From: a virus | UHGV virus genome: UHGV-1280364 | Strand: one strand, 5' to 3' | DNA: 18,393 nucleotides | Shown: positions 7,803 through 18,259 of the stretch, in pieces | Numbering within the stretch: position 1 is the first letter of the stretch | Layout: every line of letters begins with the position of its first letter | The notes under the pieces: generated by a model | The model's input: the letters and a program-made list of their open reading frames with translations, nothing else | What the model was told of the DNA's origin: nothing | Database searches by the model: none | Position numbers and translations under genes: made by a program

Positions 7803-8259
7803 TCTTTAGCTCCTCGTATTTTGAGCGCGGTAACTGATAAATCGTGATGCCTACAGGCTTTCCATTGCTGGTATAAGCATCATCAAGGTGACCAACACGG
7901 GTAGCGCCAAGCAAACGGATAATTGCCCGTCCGTATTTCGTGGTGTCAGGAACCATAGTGATGCTGTTAAGGAATGGTGAGTTTTCGAGAAGCCATTTGC
8001 AGAATAATCGATGCCCTTGCAGTGCATATTCGCCACGGAATCCGGGGTCGTACACCGCATGGCATTCAACAACGCTATGCCAGAAGTTACGCACTTCATG
8101 CACTCCGACCAGCATCAGTCCTTCGTAGATGCCGAGGTATACCGCATCAGGCTTGATGTAGTATTTGTCTCCACTGTCTACGATATTTCCCGTGTTTGCC
8201 GGGTTGTTGAGGAATTCTGCAAGCTTCACCGGATTATCGATGAGCTTTATTTCCATCAC
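7777..8259 (-). CDS. Hypothetical phage protein in the gp14 position (160 aa)
   Basis: Complete ORF between the tail needle and gp7-like genes, overlapping both neighbours as is usual in this operon. No family recognised. Confidence 0.4.
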
Positions 8260-9209
8260 TGCTCCGCAATGATTTTGATGGTTGTGGCAGTAAACGCCGC
8301 ACCATTAGACTGAATGGTTAACGTGCTGCCATTTGTGGCAAGAAAGCCGTCTTTATCCACGCTGAAGAACGTAGCTAACAGGATGTTGTCGGTTGTTGTC
8401 GCCGCATTACGACTGCTTACCAGTGTGTCAGGAACAGAGCCGGAAAAGGTTAGCTGCATTGACCTGTTGGCGGTTCCGCTGGGCCACGTCCCGACGATCG
8501 ACAGCTTGAAGAACAAGGTTTTGTTCTCGTTGAACACAACCATCTTGTTGTTAACGGTGTCGAAGAATGGTGCCAACGTGCCGGATGACGGCGTGAGCGT
8601 TTTCAGCAGGCTAACAAGGTTGGTCGGCGCTGTCGGAATGGTTACTGATACGCCAGAGTAAACAACCTCTGATTTCTTTCGCGTGATGGCATACTCAAGC
8701 GCAGATATTCTTGTTGAGTGATCACCAACTGTGCTTTGTAGCGTCGAAATACTTCCCTCTGCCGCTGTGAGCCTAGTATCAAGTGCGTCGATATCGGTTG
8801 TATTCTGAGTTATTCGCGCATCATGGTTTGCTAACTCAGATTCATTGGCAGCAATTCGCGTCTCGTGATCAGCCAGCTCTGTTTCGGCAGCAGTAATCCT
8901 TGTTTCATGATCTGCAAGAGTGCTTTCCGCTGCTGCGATTCTATGTTCATGATTGACGAGAGTTGCTTCAGCAGCAGCAATTCTGGATTCATGGTCTGCA
9001 AGGGTGACATCCTGCTCATCATTCTTCACCTGTGCATCATAAGCCCCCTTCCCTGCTTCGTTGGCCTTGTTCGCCACGTTACCAACATCAGCACCCTGTG
9101 CGATAACGTACAACAGATACGACTGCGAGAAGATATTGCGTGGAAGGACTGATGTGTCGAGTCGTGTAGCCTGAATGATTACCGGCTCATTGAGATTCGA
9201 ATCAGCCAT
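8256..9209 (-). CDS. Tail needle protein (gp26-like) with a non-P22 C-terminal domain (317 aa)
   Basis: N-terminus [43 protein letters not shown]...[13 protein letters not shown] matches the P22 gp26 N-terminus as recalled. Followed by 14-residue repeats and a C-terminal domain unlike P22 (Sf6/HK620-type knob suspected). Confidence 0.85.
8790..9000. repeat. Imperfect 42-bp tandem repeats encoding the tail-needle coiled coil
   Basis: About four to five tandem units encode repeats of the form [11 protein letters not shown]... (for example [56 protein letters not shown]). Boundaries approximate. Confidence 0.7.
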
Positions 9210-10627
9210 TACTCAATCCTTATCTGGCAGCCAGACAGAGTGACAGGTGACTTCGTGATAACGCGCAATTTGAAGCCGACATTTTTCCTGATTCGCCCGA
9301 CACGCTTCCACAAAACGCGTTTGTCGTAAACGAACGGTTCATTCTGTTCAATCATCTGCTCACGTCCGTAATTTATGCCGTCAGTGGTTGCAGAGAGGAA
9401 CAGGCGGTCGGCGTACTGCGCAACGCCAGTTGACGATTCAACCTCAAGATCGAACACTCTGGCGTTATCCGCTTTGAACAACGGAGTAAACAGCAGGTGT
9501 TCTTGCTGTAGCCCATACTGGCTGCTGATATCGAACTGCAATTTCCCGGTCACGGACTCCAGCTTATCTCCGCACGTTATCTGATTGCCTTCATAAATGA
9601 AGTCGATAGCGCGGTACACATCGTCATACAGGCCTGTTTTCAACACACACCATTGCGGACCATTTGCGCTTGAAGATGCGTCGTACACGAGGACGTGACG
9701 CGGAAGATGGATAATCAGCAACTCATGCGCATCAAACCGCAGCGATTCCATTACGCCATCAGCCAGTTCATCAGCAGTGTAGGAGCGGAGAATTTTCTCA
9801 ATGCTCGCGCTGGCGATTGGTGATACCTGACCGGAACCGATGATGTACACAGACGGCGCACCTGTTGCCGGATTGCTGATGAACGCATACGAATCAGCAA
9901 ACGGCGTTTTGCAGTAAGTCCCGGCGATGCCTTTTTGCACCATCAGTGATGGCTGTGCGACATACAAAGCAGCACCAACGGTGGTTGCACCAGTCAGGGA
10001 GAAATATTCAATCGTCGATGAACCAAAGCAGACGATGAAGTCTCGCCATGTTCCGATGCCGATAATACCGTCAGGCTGAGACTCAGCACGATATTGTGCG
10101 CTGTATCGGTCAGGATGTGATTCGTCTTCAGGGTCAGTGATAAACCATGAATCAGTGCCGTCTTTTGACCACGCATAACGCCCACGCAAGCGCGTAATGT
10201 CACGAACCGAACCTAACTCATACTGCGTGAATCCGCTGTCTGTAGGCCAGTTTGAGACGGTTTTAACTGTGCCATCATAGCGGTATTCGACCAGTTGCCC
10301 GTTAACGCCTACAGCCTGAGATGTACGACCATGCGCCATTGATACACGACCACTTCCGGCAACATCACCGACTTCACTTTCGCCCTTATACAGCTTGCCA
10401 CCACATACGCGATAAACAGCATTCTGCGCCATGTTGTACTCGACGCCCCGCGATACGCCGTTCACGTCGGAACGTTTGGCAATGCCCGGGAATGAGCGAA
10501 GATATCCGCTGCTGTTGAGGATTTCTTTGGGTGTAGCCAGCATATTCACTGGCAGATAGTCGATATAGTCAGCGCTTCGAAAGTCTTTGCCGACACCTTT
10601 CATAAGCGGAAGTTGCTGAATCGGCAT
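9209..10627 (-). CDS. Tail accessory / head-completion protein, P22 gp10-like (472 aa)
   Basis: N-terminus [49 protein letters not shown] matches P22 gp10 as recalled, and the length is the same (472 aa). Confidence 0.88.
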
Positions 10628-10636
10628 TTATTCACC

Positions 10637-11098
10637 TCACGTACTCGGATTATCTTTCTCGATGTAAAACCGATTCCACGTAAACGCGCTTTTGTTACCA
10701 CTACCGCGAGGCATGTCATTTCGCCGCTCAAGTGGTGGTATTTTGGTTAAAGCGATACAGATTGTCTGATATGCACTGTCAGCAGCGGTAAGGAGAGCAT
10801 CCGACGGCTGAATGACGTTATCCATGCACATCTGCACAGCGAGCTTCAAAGCGACGCCATCATTTGCCCATGCAGGGATACCTGAATCATCGTCAGGTAA
10901 CGGCATGATGCCGTTTTCTGTATCAGCAAACTGATATCCAAGCTCGATACCTTTCGCCTGCCATGCTGCCATCATGTCTTCGAGATCATTAATGGCATCT
11001 TCAATTGCCTGAGGGTCAGCATCTGTCAACGTGGCATTGGAATACAGCCCGGCTTTTCGCAAAGCCTTTAGAACGAGATCACCCTTCGTTTTCGCCAT
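10637..11098 (-). CDS. Head-completion / tail accessory factor, P22 gp4-like (153 aa)
   Basis: Resembles the P22 gp4 N-terminus (KTKGDLV..ALRK.G......LTD..PQ...DA.DDLE.MMA.W) and sits between the coat and gp10-like genes. Confidence 0.75.
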   Translation of the reverse strand: MAKTKGDLVLKALRKAGLYSNATLTDADPQAIEDAINDLEDMMAAWQAKGIELGYQFADTENGIMPLPDDDSGIPAWANDGVALKLAVQMCMDNVIQPSDALLTAADSAYQTICIALTKIPPLERRNDMPRGSGNKSAFTWNRFYIEKDNPST

Positions 11099-11267
11099 CT
11101 TCTTCCGCCTTAGCCACTTTTTGCTTCGTTGCGGTTTCTTCAGGAGTTTTTACCCAACCTTTTTTCAGGTGAGATTTAACTTCTTCGTCATCAACAATGA
11201 TGTAATCGACAGCAAACTGACCACAGGTGATCATGTTGCCCGGCTTATAGAGCATTGTTCGTGCCAT
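11079..11267 (-). CDS. Small hypothetical protein (62 aa) between coat and gp4-like genes
   Basis: Start at the Met of MARTMLYKPG with GGAGAAG upstream (plus 11272-11278). The longer 74-aa track ORF would begin inside the terminator. Lys/Glu-rich C-terminus. Confidence 0.45.
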   Translation of the reverse strand: MARTMLYKPGNMITCGQFAVDYIIVDDEEVKSHLKKGWVKTPEETATKQKVAKAEEDGENEG

Positions 11268-11278
11268 TGTCTTCTCCC

Positions 11279-11302
11279 AATAAAAATGGGGCCGAAGCCC
11301 CA
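11279..11302 (-). terminator. Rho-independent terminator immediately after the coat gene
   Basis: Hairpin ggggc-cgaa-gcccc (11288-11301) followed on the minus strand by a U-run (plus 11281-11287 taaaaat). Located 7-30 nt downstream of the coat stop. Confidence 0.7.
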
Positions 11303-11308
11303 CCTAAA

Positions 11309-12562
11309 TTACTGCCCGGCAATAACGATGCCCGTATATTCAGGAACCAGTACAGAGCAACCGTACAGAGTGGTGAAACGCGCAGTGGTTACGCCTTTGA
11401 TGTGGTCGAAGGCGTAAGACATGATCAGCGTAGCGCCCTGCTCGGTGGTTGCTGTCATTACCTGTGGACCCTGACCAGTCGGGAACGCTAGTTTGCCGTA
11501 CATCAGCTCAACAGAACCATCAGCCCAGAACAGGTTGGCCGGTGCGGCATTTTTGTTGAGAATGGTGATTGCTGCACCATTTGCCGCGTTAGCATCAACG
11601 TTTGCATATGGACGGCTGGCGACATCTGCGTTGTCAGGCGGCAGAATTTTCGGGGAGATAGTCACTGTCGTTCCGCTTACTGCCAGAACGCGGAATACCT
11701 GCGGCTGCCCGGTGGTGTCTTTGGTGATCTGGTGTACAGAATTCACGCCAGCAATGGTGAACGCATCACCAACCTGCAACCCAGATGCAGATACCGTAAT
11801 AGTCCCCTGTCGGTTATCCACTGGCATATCGTTGGCATCTTTCGCTTCAACCTTGTGCGCAGGTTCAGCCGCCAGCGTCAGGGAAGTTGCTGTACCCTTC
11901 GGAACACGACCAGAAATATCGGTCTTGTAGCTATCGAAGGACGCAACCGGAGGGATCTGCGCTTTTTCGTATGCTGTCAGGGTTGCGCCCTGAGCGTAGG
12001 CACGGTGACCAAGCTCGCCAGCAAGGTCTTTGTAGTTGAAGGGGTTCCAGAAAGAGCGACGGTTGATACCCTGTGGTACACCAATCGCCGTCATGGTGGC
12101 ATCAATACCTGCCGCACAGTTCCACAAATCACGGCCCTGTGAACCAGTGGTTGAGTCAGCCATTGTGATCACGTTAGTAGCACGCTGCGTGACCATGGAA
12201 ATCAGGTCAGAGTCAATCTGTGCAGCAAGGCGCATACCTGCGGCGCGACCAGCTTCAGTTTTATGTTCCGGGTCACGCATTTCACGCGCATCCAGAGTGT
12301 ACAGAATGTTTTTCGGCTCCTTGAACACAGAAGGAACAAGGCGCTGAACCAGTGCTGTTGGCGTTTTGCCGCTGAGATCTAGGCCTTCCTCAATGTTCAT
12401 GTGGTAATGCTGCGGACGATACAGAACATCACCTGCTCGCTGCATTGCTGTATCACCGGGACGGAATTTTTTAGCGTTACGGGAAACTACGCAGGCGGCC
12501 TCAAAGCCTTCAACGTAGTTTTCGAACATGATTTCAAGGTTTTTTGCTAATTGGTTAGCCAT
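11309..12562 (-). CDS. Major capsid (coat) protein, P22 gp5 / Sf6 gp5-like (417 aa)
   Basis: Synteny (scaffold, coat, gp4) and recalled similarity to P22 coat (for example YANV.....A..I.ILN...A..N.FWAD). Followed by a strong terminator. Confidence 0.85.
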   Translation of the reverse strand: MANQLAKNLEIMFENYVEGFEAACVVSRNAKKFRPGDTAMQRAGDVLYRPQHYHMNIEEGLDLSGKTPTALVQRLVPSVFKEPKNILYTLDAREMRDPEHKTEAGRAAGMRLAAQIDSDLISMVTQRATNVITMADSTTGSQGRDLWNCAAGIDATMTAIGVPQGINRRSFWNPFNYKDLAGELGHRAYAQGATLTAYEKAQIPPVASFDSYKTDISGRVPKGTATSLTLAAEPAHKVEAKDANDMPVDNRQGTITVSASGLQVGDAFTIAGVNSVHQITKDTTGQPQVFRVLAVSGTTVTISPKILPPDNADVASRPYANVDANAANGAAITILNKNAAPANLFWADGSVELMYGKLAFPTGQGPQVMTATTEQGATLIMSYAFDHIKGVTTARFTTLYGCSVLVPEYTGIVIAGQ

Positions 12563-12580
12563 GCTTAATGCTCCGATAGG

Positions 12581-13474
12581 TTATTTTTTTGCCTTTTTAG
12601 CGGCGAAATACGGCGTCCAGTCACCAGTTTCCAGCGCCTTGGCTTTCAATTTGCCGAGGTTGTTGATTACTGCGCCGTTGCTCCCCTTAACTGTCGGGGT
12701 TGTGGCTGCCGTGGTTTTTGCTTTTGGCATGATTCTGGCCTTAGATTCGATACGTTCCAGCAGACGACCAATTGCTACGGGGTTGGTAGCTTCTGCCAGT
12801 TGCTTGCGCAGTTCAGCGTTGCGACCAAGCGCCAGAACAACGATTTCCGGCTTCTCTGACTCAAACAGGATCGCGTTTTGTGTCTCGATGGGGATTTCCT
12901 CGAGTACGGCCTGTTCTGCTTCCTGATAGCCAGGAACCTTGAGAGCCTTAACACGTTGCTGATATTTGGATAATCGCTCTTGATAAGCAGCCTGAAGCTC
13001 CTGCTCCTTCTGCTTGCGAGCCATCTCCTGTTGCTGGTACTTTCCGTTATCCTCTGCCCACTTAGCCATGCGTTGCTGATAGATTTCTTCATCGAAACCG
13101 ATGTCCTCATCATCCAGTTTTGGCATTCGCGGTGGTTGAGTGATTACCGGCTGCTGCTCGACGGGTTTCTGAGACTGACGCATCAGCTCTTTCAGCTCGC
13201 GGTCTTTCTCTTTAATCGTCTTGCGCAGGTGTTTTACCAGTCCATGCTCTGCGCTATCTTCGCTGGTTGGCGAATCCAGCTTTTCATCACCAAAGTAGAA
13301 TTCCTGTTCTGATTCGTCGTCATCAGTTTCAGTAGCTTCCTCTGCATCATTGCCGGAGGACTCACTGCCATCTTCTGTTTCGACTTCTTCAGCCAGTTCG
13401 ACATCATCAGGAATCTTCTCTGATGTATCGGTTTCGATTTCAACTTCTGGTGTGTTTTCTGCCATCTGGTCCAT
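12581..13474 (-). CDS. Scaffolding protein (297 aa)
   Basis: Lies between portal and coat. Highly acidic N-terminus, charged helical middle, basic C-terminal tail (KLKAKALETGDWTPYFAAKKAKK). Confidence 0.75.
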   Translation of the reverse strand: MDQMAENTPEVEIETDTSEKIPDDVELAEEVETEDGSESSGNDAEEATETDDDESEQEFYFGDEKLDSPTSEDSAEHGLVKHLRKTIKEKDRELKELMRQSQKPVEQQPVITQPPRMPKLDDEDIGFDEEIYQQRMAKWAEDNGKYQQQEMARKQKEQELQAAYQERLSKYQQRVKALKVPGYQEAEQAVLEEIPIETQNAILFESEKPEIVVLALGRNAELRKQLAEATNPVAIGRLLERIESKARIMPKAKTTAATTPTVKGSNGAVINNLGKLKAKALETGDWTPYFAAKKAKK

Positions 13475-13564
13475 TTGTTCCCCCTGTTTACTCGATGTTC
13501 AGCCCATCGGAAGGCAATAGGGTGCCAGGCCTCATAAAGACAGCCATTGCACGTTATGGGTTAA

Positions 13565-15763
13565 TTACTGCTGTGGTTGTTGCTGAGTTAATTTTTGCAG
13601 GATGCTGCTGATGTCCATGCGCAGCGCATGGCCCTGTGCCTGACTTTTCAGGACAAGCTCTGCATCAGCACGGGCATTATCTCCTTGCTGTTGCTGGAAC
13701 TGTCCGAGCAGTTTCAGCGCCTCACGGATATCAGATTTTTGCTGGCTATCGGCAGATGCGAGGATTTTCACAACATTTGCCGCAGCAACCTGAGCATCCG
13801 TCTGTGCCTGGAATGCTTTAACCTGAATGGCTGCCTGTTCGTTCTGCGCTTTCTGCAATTCAGCCTGACCAGCAAGAAGCTGACCTTGCGCAGCAACCAT
13901 AGCCGGATCTGGCTGACTGGCCTGTTGTTGTTTCGCCTGCTCAACCATCTGCTGCTCTTCTGGCGTTCTCGGCTTGATAACTCCAGACAGAAGCAACTGA
14001 TTGCGGTTGTATTCTTTAAGGTCGTCCATCCCTTCGCCATCCATATTGTCGAGAATCATCGACGATACAAGGTCGTGCTTCGGCGTTCCTGGTGGGATAA
14101 GTGCCAGCATGGAAAGTAACGACTTAACCGTTGCATCACGGCGAGTAGCGAACGACTGACCGACATCGACAGTCACTTCATAGTTACCCTGCGAAAGGTC
14201 GTTAAGCGCGATAACCTGCCCTGTCTGACGGTCAACCACTTCACCAGTCATCAGCGCCACGTCATCGCTGCCGTCCTCATTAACGATGCGCATTGGCGTA
14301 TCGCTGCCATAGACTTCACGCGCCATAGAAAGCCACACAACGCCAGCGCGACGCATGGATTTAGCCATGTTGTCCATGTAGATATAGGACTGCGTATCCA
14401 TCCGGTTAAAGATGCTATCAACGGTATCGGTGGCGACGTTGCTCGGCATGTTCTCAAGCTGCGACGCACCTGTAATTTGCTGAATAGCCGTTCCGGTGTA
14501 CTGCAATAGCCCGGCAAGAGCTGGCGGCATTTGTGTCGGAGGTGTATAACTGCTGACCTGAGCCTGCGCAGTAATATCTCCGTTTTTGTTTTTCAGACTG
14601 ACCATCGGCAGGAACGCCGGGCGCTTTTTGTTGCGCTCCGCCCAATGAGTGGCAAGAGGACCAGGAATCATGTCAACATCAACTACAGGAATGCCATCAC
14701 CGCCAGCCTGAGTAGCGTTATCTGCAATCATGGAAACCATCAGGTTCTCAAGACGCTGCGCATCCATCGCTTTTGCTGCGTGGCCTTCGATTCGCTCCTG
14801 ATTATCAACAAATGAGCGACGCCCATATACCGGGATGAGAGGAATATGTTCGCCCGGAATACGCTTCGGTTCTTCCAGCCATTCAGCGCCAGACAGAAGA
14901 CCGCAATAAACGCGGCGCTTCTTCACCGTTCGCTCGCCAATCAGTTCGAATGCACCATCGGTCAGCTCGTCGACAATATCTTTGATTTGCTCTTCATCAT
15001 AGATTGCCGTTTCTCCGCTGACAGGGTTACGCCATGCTGTGAGCTTCACCTTCTCTATGCGGACTTCGTAGTAACGTCCAACATAGATGGCATCTGGCGT
15101 TGACCAGTCATATTGAGTGCCAGTGTCATCACGAGAAAGGCTTGCCGCGATGGAATCAGGGTATTCAGCCTCGAACGCTTTAGGCGTCATGGAGAACATT
15201 TCCATAGCCCACATAGCATCAGAGCGGTCATATTGCTTGCTGTCCTGATCGAAGAAGACGCATGTCGCTGGGTCGTAAACAGGAAGAAGGCTGATGCGTC
15301 GCTGCTCGTTACTCGGATCCATTTCATCTTCGTAATCAGCACACATGCGGAAACAACCGAATCCGCCCGTTACAGCATCATCAAATGCGTTATCACACGC
15401 TTCGCCACCGGATGTTTCCTGATAATCAGCGCGGAATTTGCCGTTCATCTTTTCGGCTAACGCTTCCGATGCCTTGTCATCCTTCGGCCTGAATTTAACG
15501 CTGATGCGATTCTGCCGATACTCGCCAATGATGCGATCACATTCACGGGCAATCTTATTTAGTTCAAAGCGCGGATAATGCTCAAACCTGCCTTCATCAA
15601 ATGAGTAACCAGCGTTTGTGCTGCCTTCCCACTGTGCGCCGGATACCCGGACGAAACGTTGAGCCTCAATAATCTGCTCACGCATATCCTGCGTTGCTGA
15701 CCAGGCATTATCAAAGTTGCACAGCACCTTGCGATGCCAGTCAGTCATCTTTTTTTCTGCCAT
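13565..15763 (-). CDS. Portal protein, P22 gp1-like (732 aa)
   Basis: Motifs match P22 portal as recalled (KRRVY....GEHIP..PV.G; PEEQQ.....Q...DPAMV.AQG.LL.GQAEL.KAQN), including the Gln-rich C-terminal barrel region. Size similar to P22 gp1 (725 aa). Confidence 0.9.
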   Translation of the reverse strand: MAEKKMTDWHRKVLCNFDNAWSATQDMREQIIEAQRFVRVSGAQWEGSTNAGYSFDEGRFEHYPRFELNKIARECDRIIGEYRQNRISVKFRPKDDKASEALAEKMNGKFRADYQETSGGEACDNAFDDAVTGGFGCFRMCADYEDEMDPSNEQRRISLLPVYDPATCVFFDQDSKQYDRSDAMWAMEMFSMTPKAFEAEYPDSIAASLSRDDTGTQYDWSTPDAIYVGRYYEVRIEKVKLTAWRNPVSGETAIYDEEQIKDIVDELTDGAFELIGERTVKKRRVYCGLLSGAEWLEEPKRIPGEHIPLIPVYGRRSFVDNQERIEGHAAKAMDAQRLENLMVSMIADNATQAGGDGIPVVDVDMIPGPLATHWAERNKKRPAFLPMVSLKNKNGDITAQAQVSSYTPPTQMPPALAGLLQYTGTAIQQITGASQLENMPSNVATDTVDSIFNRMDTQSYIYMDNMAKSMRRAGVVWLSMAREVYGSDTPMRIVNEDGSDDVALMTGEVVDRQTGQVIALNDLSQGNYEVTVDVGQSFATRRDATVKSLLSMLALIPPGTPKHDLVSSMILDNMDGEGMDDLKEYNRNQLLLSGVIKPRTPEEQQMVEQAKQQQASQPDPAMVAAQGQLLAGQAELQKAQNEQAAIQVKAFQAQTDAQVAAANVVKILASADSQQKSDIREALKLLGQFQQQQGDNARADAELVLKSQAQGHALRMDISSILQKLTQQQPQQ

Positions 15764-16212
15764 ATCAACCTACACCACAAGGAATTGAGTAACTGGAATA
15801 GTCGGGTTGCGCAGCCGACTCCGGGCAATGCATACACATCATCAGCGCATCAGCCAGGTTAGGAGATGGAATACCGAGCTTCTGCTTCATTTCGACCTTA
15901 GTCATAAGCTCCAGCTTCCCGTTGTGCGCCGGATACCCGGACGAAACGTTGAGCCTCAATAATCTGCTCACGCATATCCTGCGTTGCTGACCAGGCATTA
16001 TCAAAGTTGCACAGCACCTTGCGATGCCAGTCAGTCATCTTTTTTTCTGCCATATCAACCTACACCACAAGGAATTGAGTAACTGGAATAGTCGGGTTGC
16101 GCAGCCGACTCCGGGCAATGCATACACATCATCAGCGCATCAGCCAGGTTAGGAGATGGAATACCGAGCTTCTGCTTCATTTCGACCTTAGTCATAAGCT
16201 CCAGCTTCCCGT
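15633..16212. repeat. Perfect 290-bp tandem duplication spanning the terminase stop and portal start (15633-15922 and 15923-16212)
   Basis: Direct comparison shows the two copies are identical, with 3-nt microhomology (tgt) at the junction. Each copy carries the portal 5' end (131 nt), the intergenic base and the terminase 3' end. Confidence 0.92.
15765..16004 (-). pseudogene. Chimeric ORF created by the 290-bp duplication (out-of-frame portal 5' sequence fused to a second copy of the terminase C-terminus)
   Basis: The last 51 residues (GKLELMTKVEM...SIPCGVG) are identical to the C-terminus of the 377-aa terminase ORF. The N-terminal 28 residues come from the duplicated portal start read out of frame. 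Confidence 0.7.
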
Positions 16213-17817
16213 TGTTATTGAATTTGCGCTGAATCTGCGTCAGTTCTGCAAACAGCTTCTCCAGCATCTTCTCGCCTATCGCTTCTTTGTCGAAACTCAG
16301 CATGTCGTCGGGGTCTGCATACTCACCGTGGACAACCGCCCGATATGTCAGATACAGCCTGTCAGCCAGCGCGTAATAGAATTGCGCTCGCTTATTACGG
16401 AACACATCGCCAATAGTGCGAACGTTGTCGCCCTGCACGACTTCATCAGCCCATGCTCCGGCCTGATATGGTGCATCTTCATCGAATGGCGATTCGCTGC
16501 CCTTGAACATCGTGGCGGTGATTTTCTTGCCGGAGAACGCTTCCGTTGTCTGTCTGCGTAGCCCGGCACCAACACCATCACCATCCCACAGGTAATGGTC
16601 AGCGCCGTCTTCAATCGCCAGCGAAGTAGCCCAGTCAGCACCCTCGTTGATGTCCATCAGCAGACCTTCGGCAATGCGCTTAACTACCGAACCGTGACGC
16701 GATGCATAACCTTTAGCATCTGGTCCTGTATCTGACGGGTCATGCGCAGAGACAACAGCGCCTTTCGCTTTCCATCCGAGTTTCTTGTGCGCATCGGTAG
16801 CAGCTTCAAGCCATTCACGTTTGATGATTGCCATATCACTTGCGCTCACTGGCTCACCAAGCCAGATGTGACGATACAGTGTCGGGTTTCTGCGTTTACA
16901 CTCTTCCATCTCCAGACGGAGAACTTCAGGAAAGTGCGGGTTGTCGGTGTAGTTCACCGTCAGCAGGCAAATATCATCGGGAGGATTTACAACGAATCGC
17001 TGATAGGTATCGTCGAGTATGTTCTTCGGGTTAAAGCTCACCCATATTTCAGAGAACGGCTTGCGGATGGTTGGTATCAGGATATCCCATGATTCCTTCG
17101 TTACCGCTTCCGCTTCCTCCACCCAGCAGATATCAATGCCTTCGAGCGATTTAATCTTCGTCGGGTTGTTTTTGATGCCGTAGAACATGAACTCACTGGC
17201 TCACCAAGCCAGATGTGACGATACAGTGTCGGGTTTCTGCGTTTACACTCTTCCATCTCCAGACGGAGAACTTCAGGAAAGTGCGGGTTGTCGGTGTAGT
17301 TCACCGTCAGCAGGCAAATATCATCGGGAGGATTTACAACGAATCGCTGATAGGTATCGTCGAGTATGTTCTTCGGGTTAAAGCTCACCCATATTTCAGA
17401 GAACGGCTTGCGGATGGTTGGTATCAGGATATCCCATGATTCCTTCGTTACCGCTTCCGCTTCCTCCACCCAGCAGATATCAATGCCTTCGAGCGATTTA
17501 ATCTTCGTCGGGTTGTTTTTGATGCCGTAGAACATGAACTCAGCATTCGTTCCGAGATGACGAATCATGGAACGCTGAATTTCAAACTCAGCCGTATACC
17601 CTTCACGCTCTATGGTGTCTTCAAGCAGCCGGATTACCGAATCGCTGATACTGTTTTGCAGTTCACGAGCGCAGAGAATACGCACTGGCTGCCGACGCGC
17701 CGCTTCAACAAGCAGCCTCGCAATTGCCCATGACTTACCGCTACCTCGACCGCCTTTGGCGACTTTGTAGCGATGCGCCTCAATGAACGGTTCAAAGATA
17801 GGATTAATCGAGGTCAT
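16055..17817 (-). pseudogene. Terminase large subunit, interrupted by a frameshifting 347-bp internal tandem duplication
   Basis: Walker A motif in the N-terminal ORF ([16 protein letters not shown]). The two track ORFs (17101-17817 and 16055-17188) share a duplicated 115-residue segment. Removing one 347-bp copy gives a single 1416-nt ORF (471 aa), close to the Sf6 gp2 length I recall (470 aa). Its start overlaps the small-subunit stop as ATGA. Confidence 0.85.
16845..17538. repeat. Perfect 347-bp tandem duplication inside the terminase large subunit gene (16845-17191 and 17192-17538)
   Basis: Copies are identical on direct comparison, with 4-nt microhomology (ctca) at the junction. 347 is not a multiple of 3, so it shifts the frame. 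Confidence 0.92.
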
Positions 17818-18236
17818 TTTCCGAATAGAGTGCTCATCGGTGATGTTTCAATCTGGATTGCGCCGCCGTCTTTGCCGACAAGCTCGTTAGTTACCTTGTC
17901 GCCATACTTACGGGGATTCATTCGGGCCAGCGCCCATTTGCGGGTATCAACGCGAAGTCTTGCCTTTGCCACCTCAGCAGCATCTGGAATCGCAGTGTCA
18001 GCAATTTCGAATATCTCTTCGAAAATAGAATCAGCTCGTGCCTCAGTTGCCTTCGCGTACTTGTCGCGAAAATCCTCATGCTTTGCCAACCAGCGGAAAA
18101 CAGTGGACTTATCCGGCATGCCAGGACGCTTACATACTTTCAGCAAACTTTCGCCAGAAGAAAGCAACGAGCAGATATCGTCAGCCACCTCCGGCATATA
18201 ATCAGAGGGGCGACCAGCTTTTGGTTCAGTCGCCAT
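17814..18236 (-). CDS. Terminase small subunit, Sf6 gp1-like (140 aa)
   Basis: Translation [80 protein letters not shown]... matches the Sf6 small terminase (140 aa) as recalled. Translationally coupled to the large subunit. Confidence 0.85.
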
Positions 18237-18259
18237 ATTTATCTCACTTAATTGTCATT

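Follow-up and report, generated by a model that had tools for sequence, protein, structure and literature searches.

At the boundary between the large terminase and portal genes of UHGV virus genome UHGV-1280364, two identical 290-bp sequences lie head to tail with no spacer between them. Is this a mutation that the prophage itself carries? Or, is it an artefact of the way in which the sequence was obtained, or an arrangement kept for its effect on the genes around it? We address this question within the window, that is the whole stretch of 18,393 nucleotides that was analysed, and the features concerned are collected in Table 1.

By its genes, the window is the virion (late) region of an E. 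coli prophage that is P22-like and belongs to the CUS-3/Sf101/Huey type; the virion genes lie on the minus strand. A Terminase_3 protein is followed directly by a P22_portal protein and the head and tail genes stand in the P22-type order, which is the arrangement of P22-like (Lederbergvirus-type) late operons. The window is syntenic with the annotated loci L001–L003, with the sister contig L004 described below and with L016–L025.

Table 1. Positions of the genes, repeats and breakpoints discussed in the text (window coordinates).
Feature	Position	Strand	Description
Portal gene	13565–15763	minus	732 aa, intact; Pfam P22_portal, E=3e-170
Scaffold, coat, head-completion, needle and ejection proteins	left of portal		
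Large terminase, in two pieces	17101–17817 and 16055–17188	minus	
Large terminase, 3' part of reading frame	16055–17188	minus	native residues 95–471; native stop in copy 2
Terminase N-terminal fragment	17101–17817	minus	209 native aa and a 29-aa frameshift tail, then stop
Small terminase	17814–18236	minus	
Copy 1 of the 290-bp unit	15633–15922		portal 5' end (first 131 nt), portal ATG, terminase stop, last ~155 nt of terminase frame
Copy 2 of the 290-bp unit	15923–16212		identical to copy 1
Left microhomology arm	15625–15635		CTTCCCACTGT, within portal gene; present in each of the 14 printed loci, portal side
Right microhomology arm	16205–16215		CTTCCCGTTGT, within terminase gene
New 51-aa ORF	15898–16053, including stop	minus	44 portal N-terminal residues and REAGAYD
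79-aa ORF, mechanical, TTG start	15765–16004	minus	27 out-of-frame residues and last 52 terminase residues
347-bp perfect tandem duplication	16845–17191 and 17192–17538		inside terminase gene; 4-bp overlap CTCA
233-nt event	2590–3022		200-bp direct repeat, 2590–2789 and 2823–3022, split by 33-nt filler, 2790–2822
immI region with sar RNA	1276–1343		

A base-by-base test found that every base from 15633 to 15925 equals the base 290 positions further on, an unbroken run of 293 bases. Beyond the two copies a further three bases match (TGT, 16213–16215). A repeat search and TRF agree on an array at 15625–16215 with a period of 290, 2.0 copies and 99% identity. An earlier note on this DNA had described a perfect 290-bp tandem duplication at 15633–16212, and these limits are exactly those of the maximal perfect 2 × 290 bp. 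A perfect repeat of this length cannot have arisen by chance, and deletion of copy 2 restores the native sequence exactly.

The 290-bp interval includes the junction of the two genes, at which the terminase TGA is followed by one base and then the portal ATG. Both signals had been placed inside the duplicated unit by the earlier note, and they are located in each copy: the minus-strand TGA at 15765–15767 in copy 1 and 16055–16057 in copy 2, and the ATG at 15761–15763 and 16051–16053, respectively. Copy 1 provides the true portal start (15763) and copy 2 provides the true terminase end. Both flanking genes are preserved at this site because the tandem duplication spans the gene boundary, and this holds for any such duplication; only duplications that lie wholly within a gene disrupt that gene. 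The native terminase 3' end and portal 5' end are therefore both kept, as had been claimed: the last 377 terminase codons are native residues 95–471, and the portal protein is identical to that of an undisturbed sister prophage, and it is the same on the two Logan contigs L004 and L005. The wider claim that both genes are intact is correct for the portal. It fails for the terminase as a whole, which is frameshifted by the neighbouring 347-bp duplication and begins with 209 native residues and a 29-aa tail.

This second duplication lies 633 bp away. It shifts the terminase frame because 347 mod 3 = 2, and DNA packaging by the prophage is therefore expected to fail. The N-terminal fragment of the terminase retains the complete Terminase_3 ATPase domain, and the downstream ORF includes the nuclease domain. 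The contrast that had been drawn between a neutral 290-bp duplication and a disruptive 347-bp one is accurate in that the latter breaks the frame, but it is a matter of geometry and carries no biological message.

The extra copy also generates new reading frames. The chimeric 79-aa ORF that had been noticed previously exists, but it is a mechanical ORF with a TTG start, and a 51-aa peptide that begins at the duplicated portal initiation site (16053) is the more plausible extra product. Neither ORF has a Pfam match. The 51-aa and 79-aa sequences, a 77-aa ATG-start version of the latter, and the 238-aa and 377-aa terminase fragments have no exact match among some 15 billion catalogued proteins. 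No promoter-like or terminator-like sites were found in 15400–16400, nor was an Rfam family found in the region of the 290-bp unit, and on these grounds a regulatory element within the unit was rejected. Because such sites are absent from 15400–16400, the late transcript would be expected to run free of any polar effect.

Comparison with the same prophage in related genomes had been proposed as a check, and there the junction is single copy. With a 2901-base query over both duplications, approximately 357 complete E. coli genomes and 8 phages match, and all of the matches listed cover the query in 2264 bases. This is 2901 − 290 − 347, i.e. the single-copy junction. Likewise, on 10 of the 10 contigs shown with an identical small terminase, a 471-aa terminase is followed two bases on by a 732-aa portal. 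The exact portal allele of the window is present on only two contigs, both from Logan short-read assemblies of one accession series (SRR2298124 and SRR2298207), and it is in no NCBI protein record of the protein collection searched. The contig from SRR2298124 (L004, 9.8 kb) is 100% identical to window 7973–18393 minus both duplications, with 0 mismatches over 7973–15925 and 17192–18393. Two mismatches stand at the 15915 end of the middle piece, where the alignment overruns the junction into the imperfect arm. Removal of the second copies from the window gives the exact terminase DNA of this contig. On these comparisons, the ancestral state of the 290-bp site is a single copy.

The other contig of the series (L005, SRR2298207_179) ends at the window equivalent of 15919, 3–6 nt from the 290-bp junction. 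This end was considered as a trace of the duplication in SRR2298207 and rejected, since the contig is unbroken through the other boundary, at 15633, and its end falls 6 nt short of where a branch point would be expected. The 290-bp junction string has no match in the GTDB species representatives, IMG/VR or the JGI metagenome contigs. The 347-bp junction string has none in the GTDB representatives.

The breakpoints themselves are not arbitrary. The left flank reads ...GCTGC CTTCCCACTGT GCGCC... and the right flank ...TCCAG CTTCCCGTTGT TATTG..., while the new junction reads ...TCCAG CTTCCCGTTGT GCGCC.... At 15915–15925 it is a hybrid of both arms with the crossover in TGT, and its 26-mer is AGCTCCAGCTTCCCGTTGTGCGCCGG. 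The exact overlap of 3 bp (TGT) lies within an imperfect direct repeat, CTTCCCRYTGT, that matches at 11 of 13 positions. This imperfect repeat is already present 290 bp apart in the relatives examined, a few of which have GTTAT in the terminase arm. Breakpoint homology was scored for all 290-bp duplications that the de-duplicated window allows, and the score of the observed event was reached by only 0.4% of all positions (P=0.004). The breakpoint homology of the 347-bp event, whose junction k-mer is GTAGAACATGAACTCACTGGCTCACCAAG, is likewise in the top 0.4% of positions (P=0.004). With both events in the top 0.4%, random concatenation is disfavoured.

A third rearrangement is present at the other end of the window. 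The direct repeat of the 233-nt event differs at one base, an untemplated T>G change at 2832. Its 33-nt filler consists of inverted copies of nearby sequence, the reverse complement of 2732–2746 (15 nt) and that of 2517–2552 (an exact match of 36 nt), and where the pieces join they overlap by 3, 6 and 9 nt (TGC, GGTTTT and TATGGGGCT). The junction k-mer is TTGCTTATGCGGTTTTTCATTGTTGTAAGAGTTGACATATGG. The site is single copy in all relatives, and the filler has no match in IMG/VR. These features are the signature of a scar of serial polymerase template switching, and we would argue that a templated filler of this kind is beyond any assembler or naive editing step. The event lies where a conserved 199-aa gene meets a YafO-toxin gene, and it leaves both intact. 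As a separate observation, the two genes form a conserved cassette (2144–3380, plus strand) downstream of Arc/Mnt-like genes, in which, in all relatives, a 16-nt overlap joins the gene of the 199-aa protein, which has no Pfam family, to the YafO-family toxin gene. The cassette may encode a toxin-antitoxin pair, borne by the prophage, in which the partner of the toxin is atypically large.

How, then, did the 290-bp duplication arise? We consider that there is about an even chance that it is a very recent microhomology-mediated tandem duplication, private to the strain, real and fixed. While the prophage DNA was being copied, a nascent strand that ended in ...CTTCCCGTTGT on the terminase side would have left its template. 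The freed strand would have re-paired with the complement of the similar CTTCCCACTGT, 290 bp behind on the portal side, and the interval between the motifs would then have been copied a second time, giving the 290-bp tandem duplication. The extra copy brings a second portal ribosome-binding site and ATG, from which the 51-aa peptide is predicted, and with no terminator-like site made the late operon would presumably be expressed without interruption. The very recent origin follows from the identity of the copies and the lack of substitutions relative to the sister contig. No function was seen for the duplication, which on this explanation is a neutral mutational scar.

Several findings count against this explanation. 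Within its 18 kb the window has three private events, each longer than 200 bp and each with a polymerase template-switch signature, and zero substitutions relative to the sister contig over 9.8 kb. Such a density of events is far above any normal mutation rate. Additionally, the junction is private with respect to GTDB, IMG/VR and JGI, and the new ORFs are on no record of the 15-billion-protein collection. The exact overlap of 3 bp, short of the 4 bp in the working definition of the class, and the odd constant difference of 57 between the event sizes (233, 290 and 347) count against it too. There are two possibilities for the density: an episode of unusually error-prone prophage replication, or minority or in-vitro junctions that were promoted by the assembler. 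The breakpoint signatures make a purely computational duplication unlikely, yet they fit polymerase switching both in vivo and in vitro.

It is quite possible, at somewhat less than an even chance, that the duplication is an artefact or a sub-clonal variant in the consensus. The junctions would come from minority or in-vitro template-switched molecules, the assembler would have walked the loop once, and, as part of the same reading, the real prophage of the strain would have just one copy at each of the three sites. In-vitro strand-displacement amplification yields chimeras joined at microhomology. The clustering of three events without substitutions, a 100%-identical sister contig with none of them, junctions that are unique among all collections searched and the restriction of the exact portal allele to two short-read runs of one accession series all fit such an origin, and more speculatively, over-represented phage DNA in the culture might let rare junction reads pass coverage filters and so concentrate these errors in the prophage. 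The base-level quality is nevertheless perfect, with 0 mismatches in 9.8 kb. Software by itself is an improbable source, since the overlaps of 3–4 bp are much shorter than any assembly k; a de Bruijn loop at a repeated k-mer, which needs junction k-mers in the reads, was rejected for this reason. Unmerged overlapping contigs or random copy-paste as the sole cause were also rejected, given P=0.004 for each breakpoint and the templated inverted filler: blind concatenation of contigs would not hit top-0.4% homology twice, nor would it make such a filler.

Might the rearrangement instead have been selected, for example by uncoupling portal translation from that of the terminase, or by supplying a regulatory or dominant-negative portal peptide that silences the prophage? 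In favour of this, the second portal start has a genuine initiation context and opens a defined 51-aa ORF, and of the three events two lie across junctions of tightly coupled genes. By a rough estimate, which was not computed, however, two of three is close to chance placement. The arrangement does not recur in the approximately 357 related prophages, the GTDB representatives, IMG/VR or the JGI metagenomes, the identity of the copies leaves no time for visible selection, the broken terminase has already inactivated the prophage, and the new ORFs lack a family match. We therefore regard selection as very improbable. Deliberate or accidental editing, i.e. a synthetic insertion in a real prophage sequence, is just as hard to credit. 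The inserted lengths of 233, 290 and 347 (2790–3022, 15923–16212 and 17192–17538) form an exact arithmetic series with a step of 57, and the junction strings and new ORFs were matched in none of the collections searched. Naive copy-paste, however, would not land twice on significant breakpoint homology, and it would not build a filler of two inverted templated segments with microhomology joins and a point change. A mechanism behind the step of 57 was sought and none was found; the series is treated as a coincidence.

The explanation by microhomology-mediated duplication has ready parallels. Tandem duplications of ~10–500 bp flanked by short microhomology are described as a class that is common in bacteria, E. 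coli among them, and in E. coli mostly strain-private (bioRxiv 10.64898/2026.02.28.708716). In microhomology-mediated tandem duplication (MTD; also called replication-slippage tandem duplication), as here, a single-copy segment of 10–500 bp becomes two head-to-tail copies and the relatives are single copy. The window differs in that its exact arm is 3 bp (TGT, within the 11/13 imperfect repeat), as against the working definition of at least 4 bp in the preprint (bioRxiv 10.64898/2026.02.28.708716), which the 347-bp event reaches with CTCA. Two further events within 18 kb are also atypical for MTD. The inverted templated insertions and overlaps of 3–9 nt in the 233-nt event resemble serial template switching at quasi-palindromes, which we take to be of the kind described by the FoSTeS/MMBIR models. 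By this analogy the likeness points to the same polymerase-switching process as a candidate cause of the whole three-event cluster, whereas the 290-bp event differs from FoSTeS/MMBIR in that it has no filler and needs only a single simple step.

The gene 2 (large terminase)/gene 1 (portal) junction of the P22-like phages CUS-3, Sf101, Huey and Kapi1 has the same genes in the same order at 97–98% DNA identity. Those phages have one junction with TGA and ATG one base apart, whereas the window has a second one at a distance of 290 bp. Artefactual duplications from assembly, gap closing or amplification chimeras are alike in that they too give perfect copies, private to one assembly and several in a cluster. 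The window differs from them in its significant breakpoint homology, its templated filler and flanks that are error-free against an independent assembly. Whether a mutation of an ordinary type or an artefact, the 290-bp event lies in a phage module that is well known.

By itself the 290-bp duplication matters little. If it is real, it is a clean natural case of a microhomology-flanked tandem duplication caught before divergence, and together with its two neighbours it shows duplications, in place of deletions or point mutations, inactivating a P22-like prophage. Should it be an artefact, it serves as a warning for annotation, since the assembly would then have a terminase that is falsely broken and small ORFs that are spurious. 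In either case, that both genes survive at the junction is due to the geometry of tandem duplication and not to biology. A more far-reaching interpretation is that the three events are the footprint of a localized burst of template switching at the replication fork, e.g. during abortive induction with in-situ replication of the P22-like prophage. We consider this improbable. Were it the case, the terminase would have been inactivated in the burst, leaving a domesticated, packaging-dead prophage, and clustered microhomology duplications would be both a signature of and a route to rapid prophage decay.

Two minor observations concern other parts of the prophage. In P22 the immI antirepressor region is regulated by sar, an antisense RNA. 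On the plus strand of the window, 1276–1343 is a full-length match to the Rfam sar family (RF00262, 90 bits). Within the tail-needle gene (8256–9209, minus strand) there is an imperfect repeat at 8883–9006 with a period of 42 nt, 3 copies and 68% matches, and this period probably reflects the heptad periodicity of a coiled coil.
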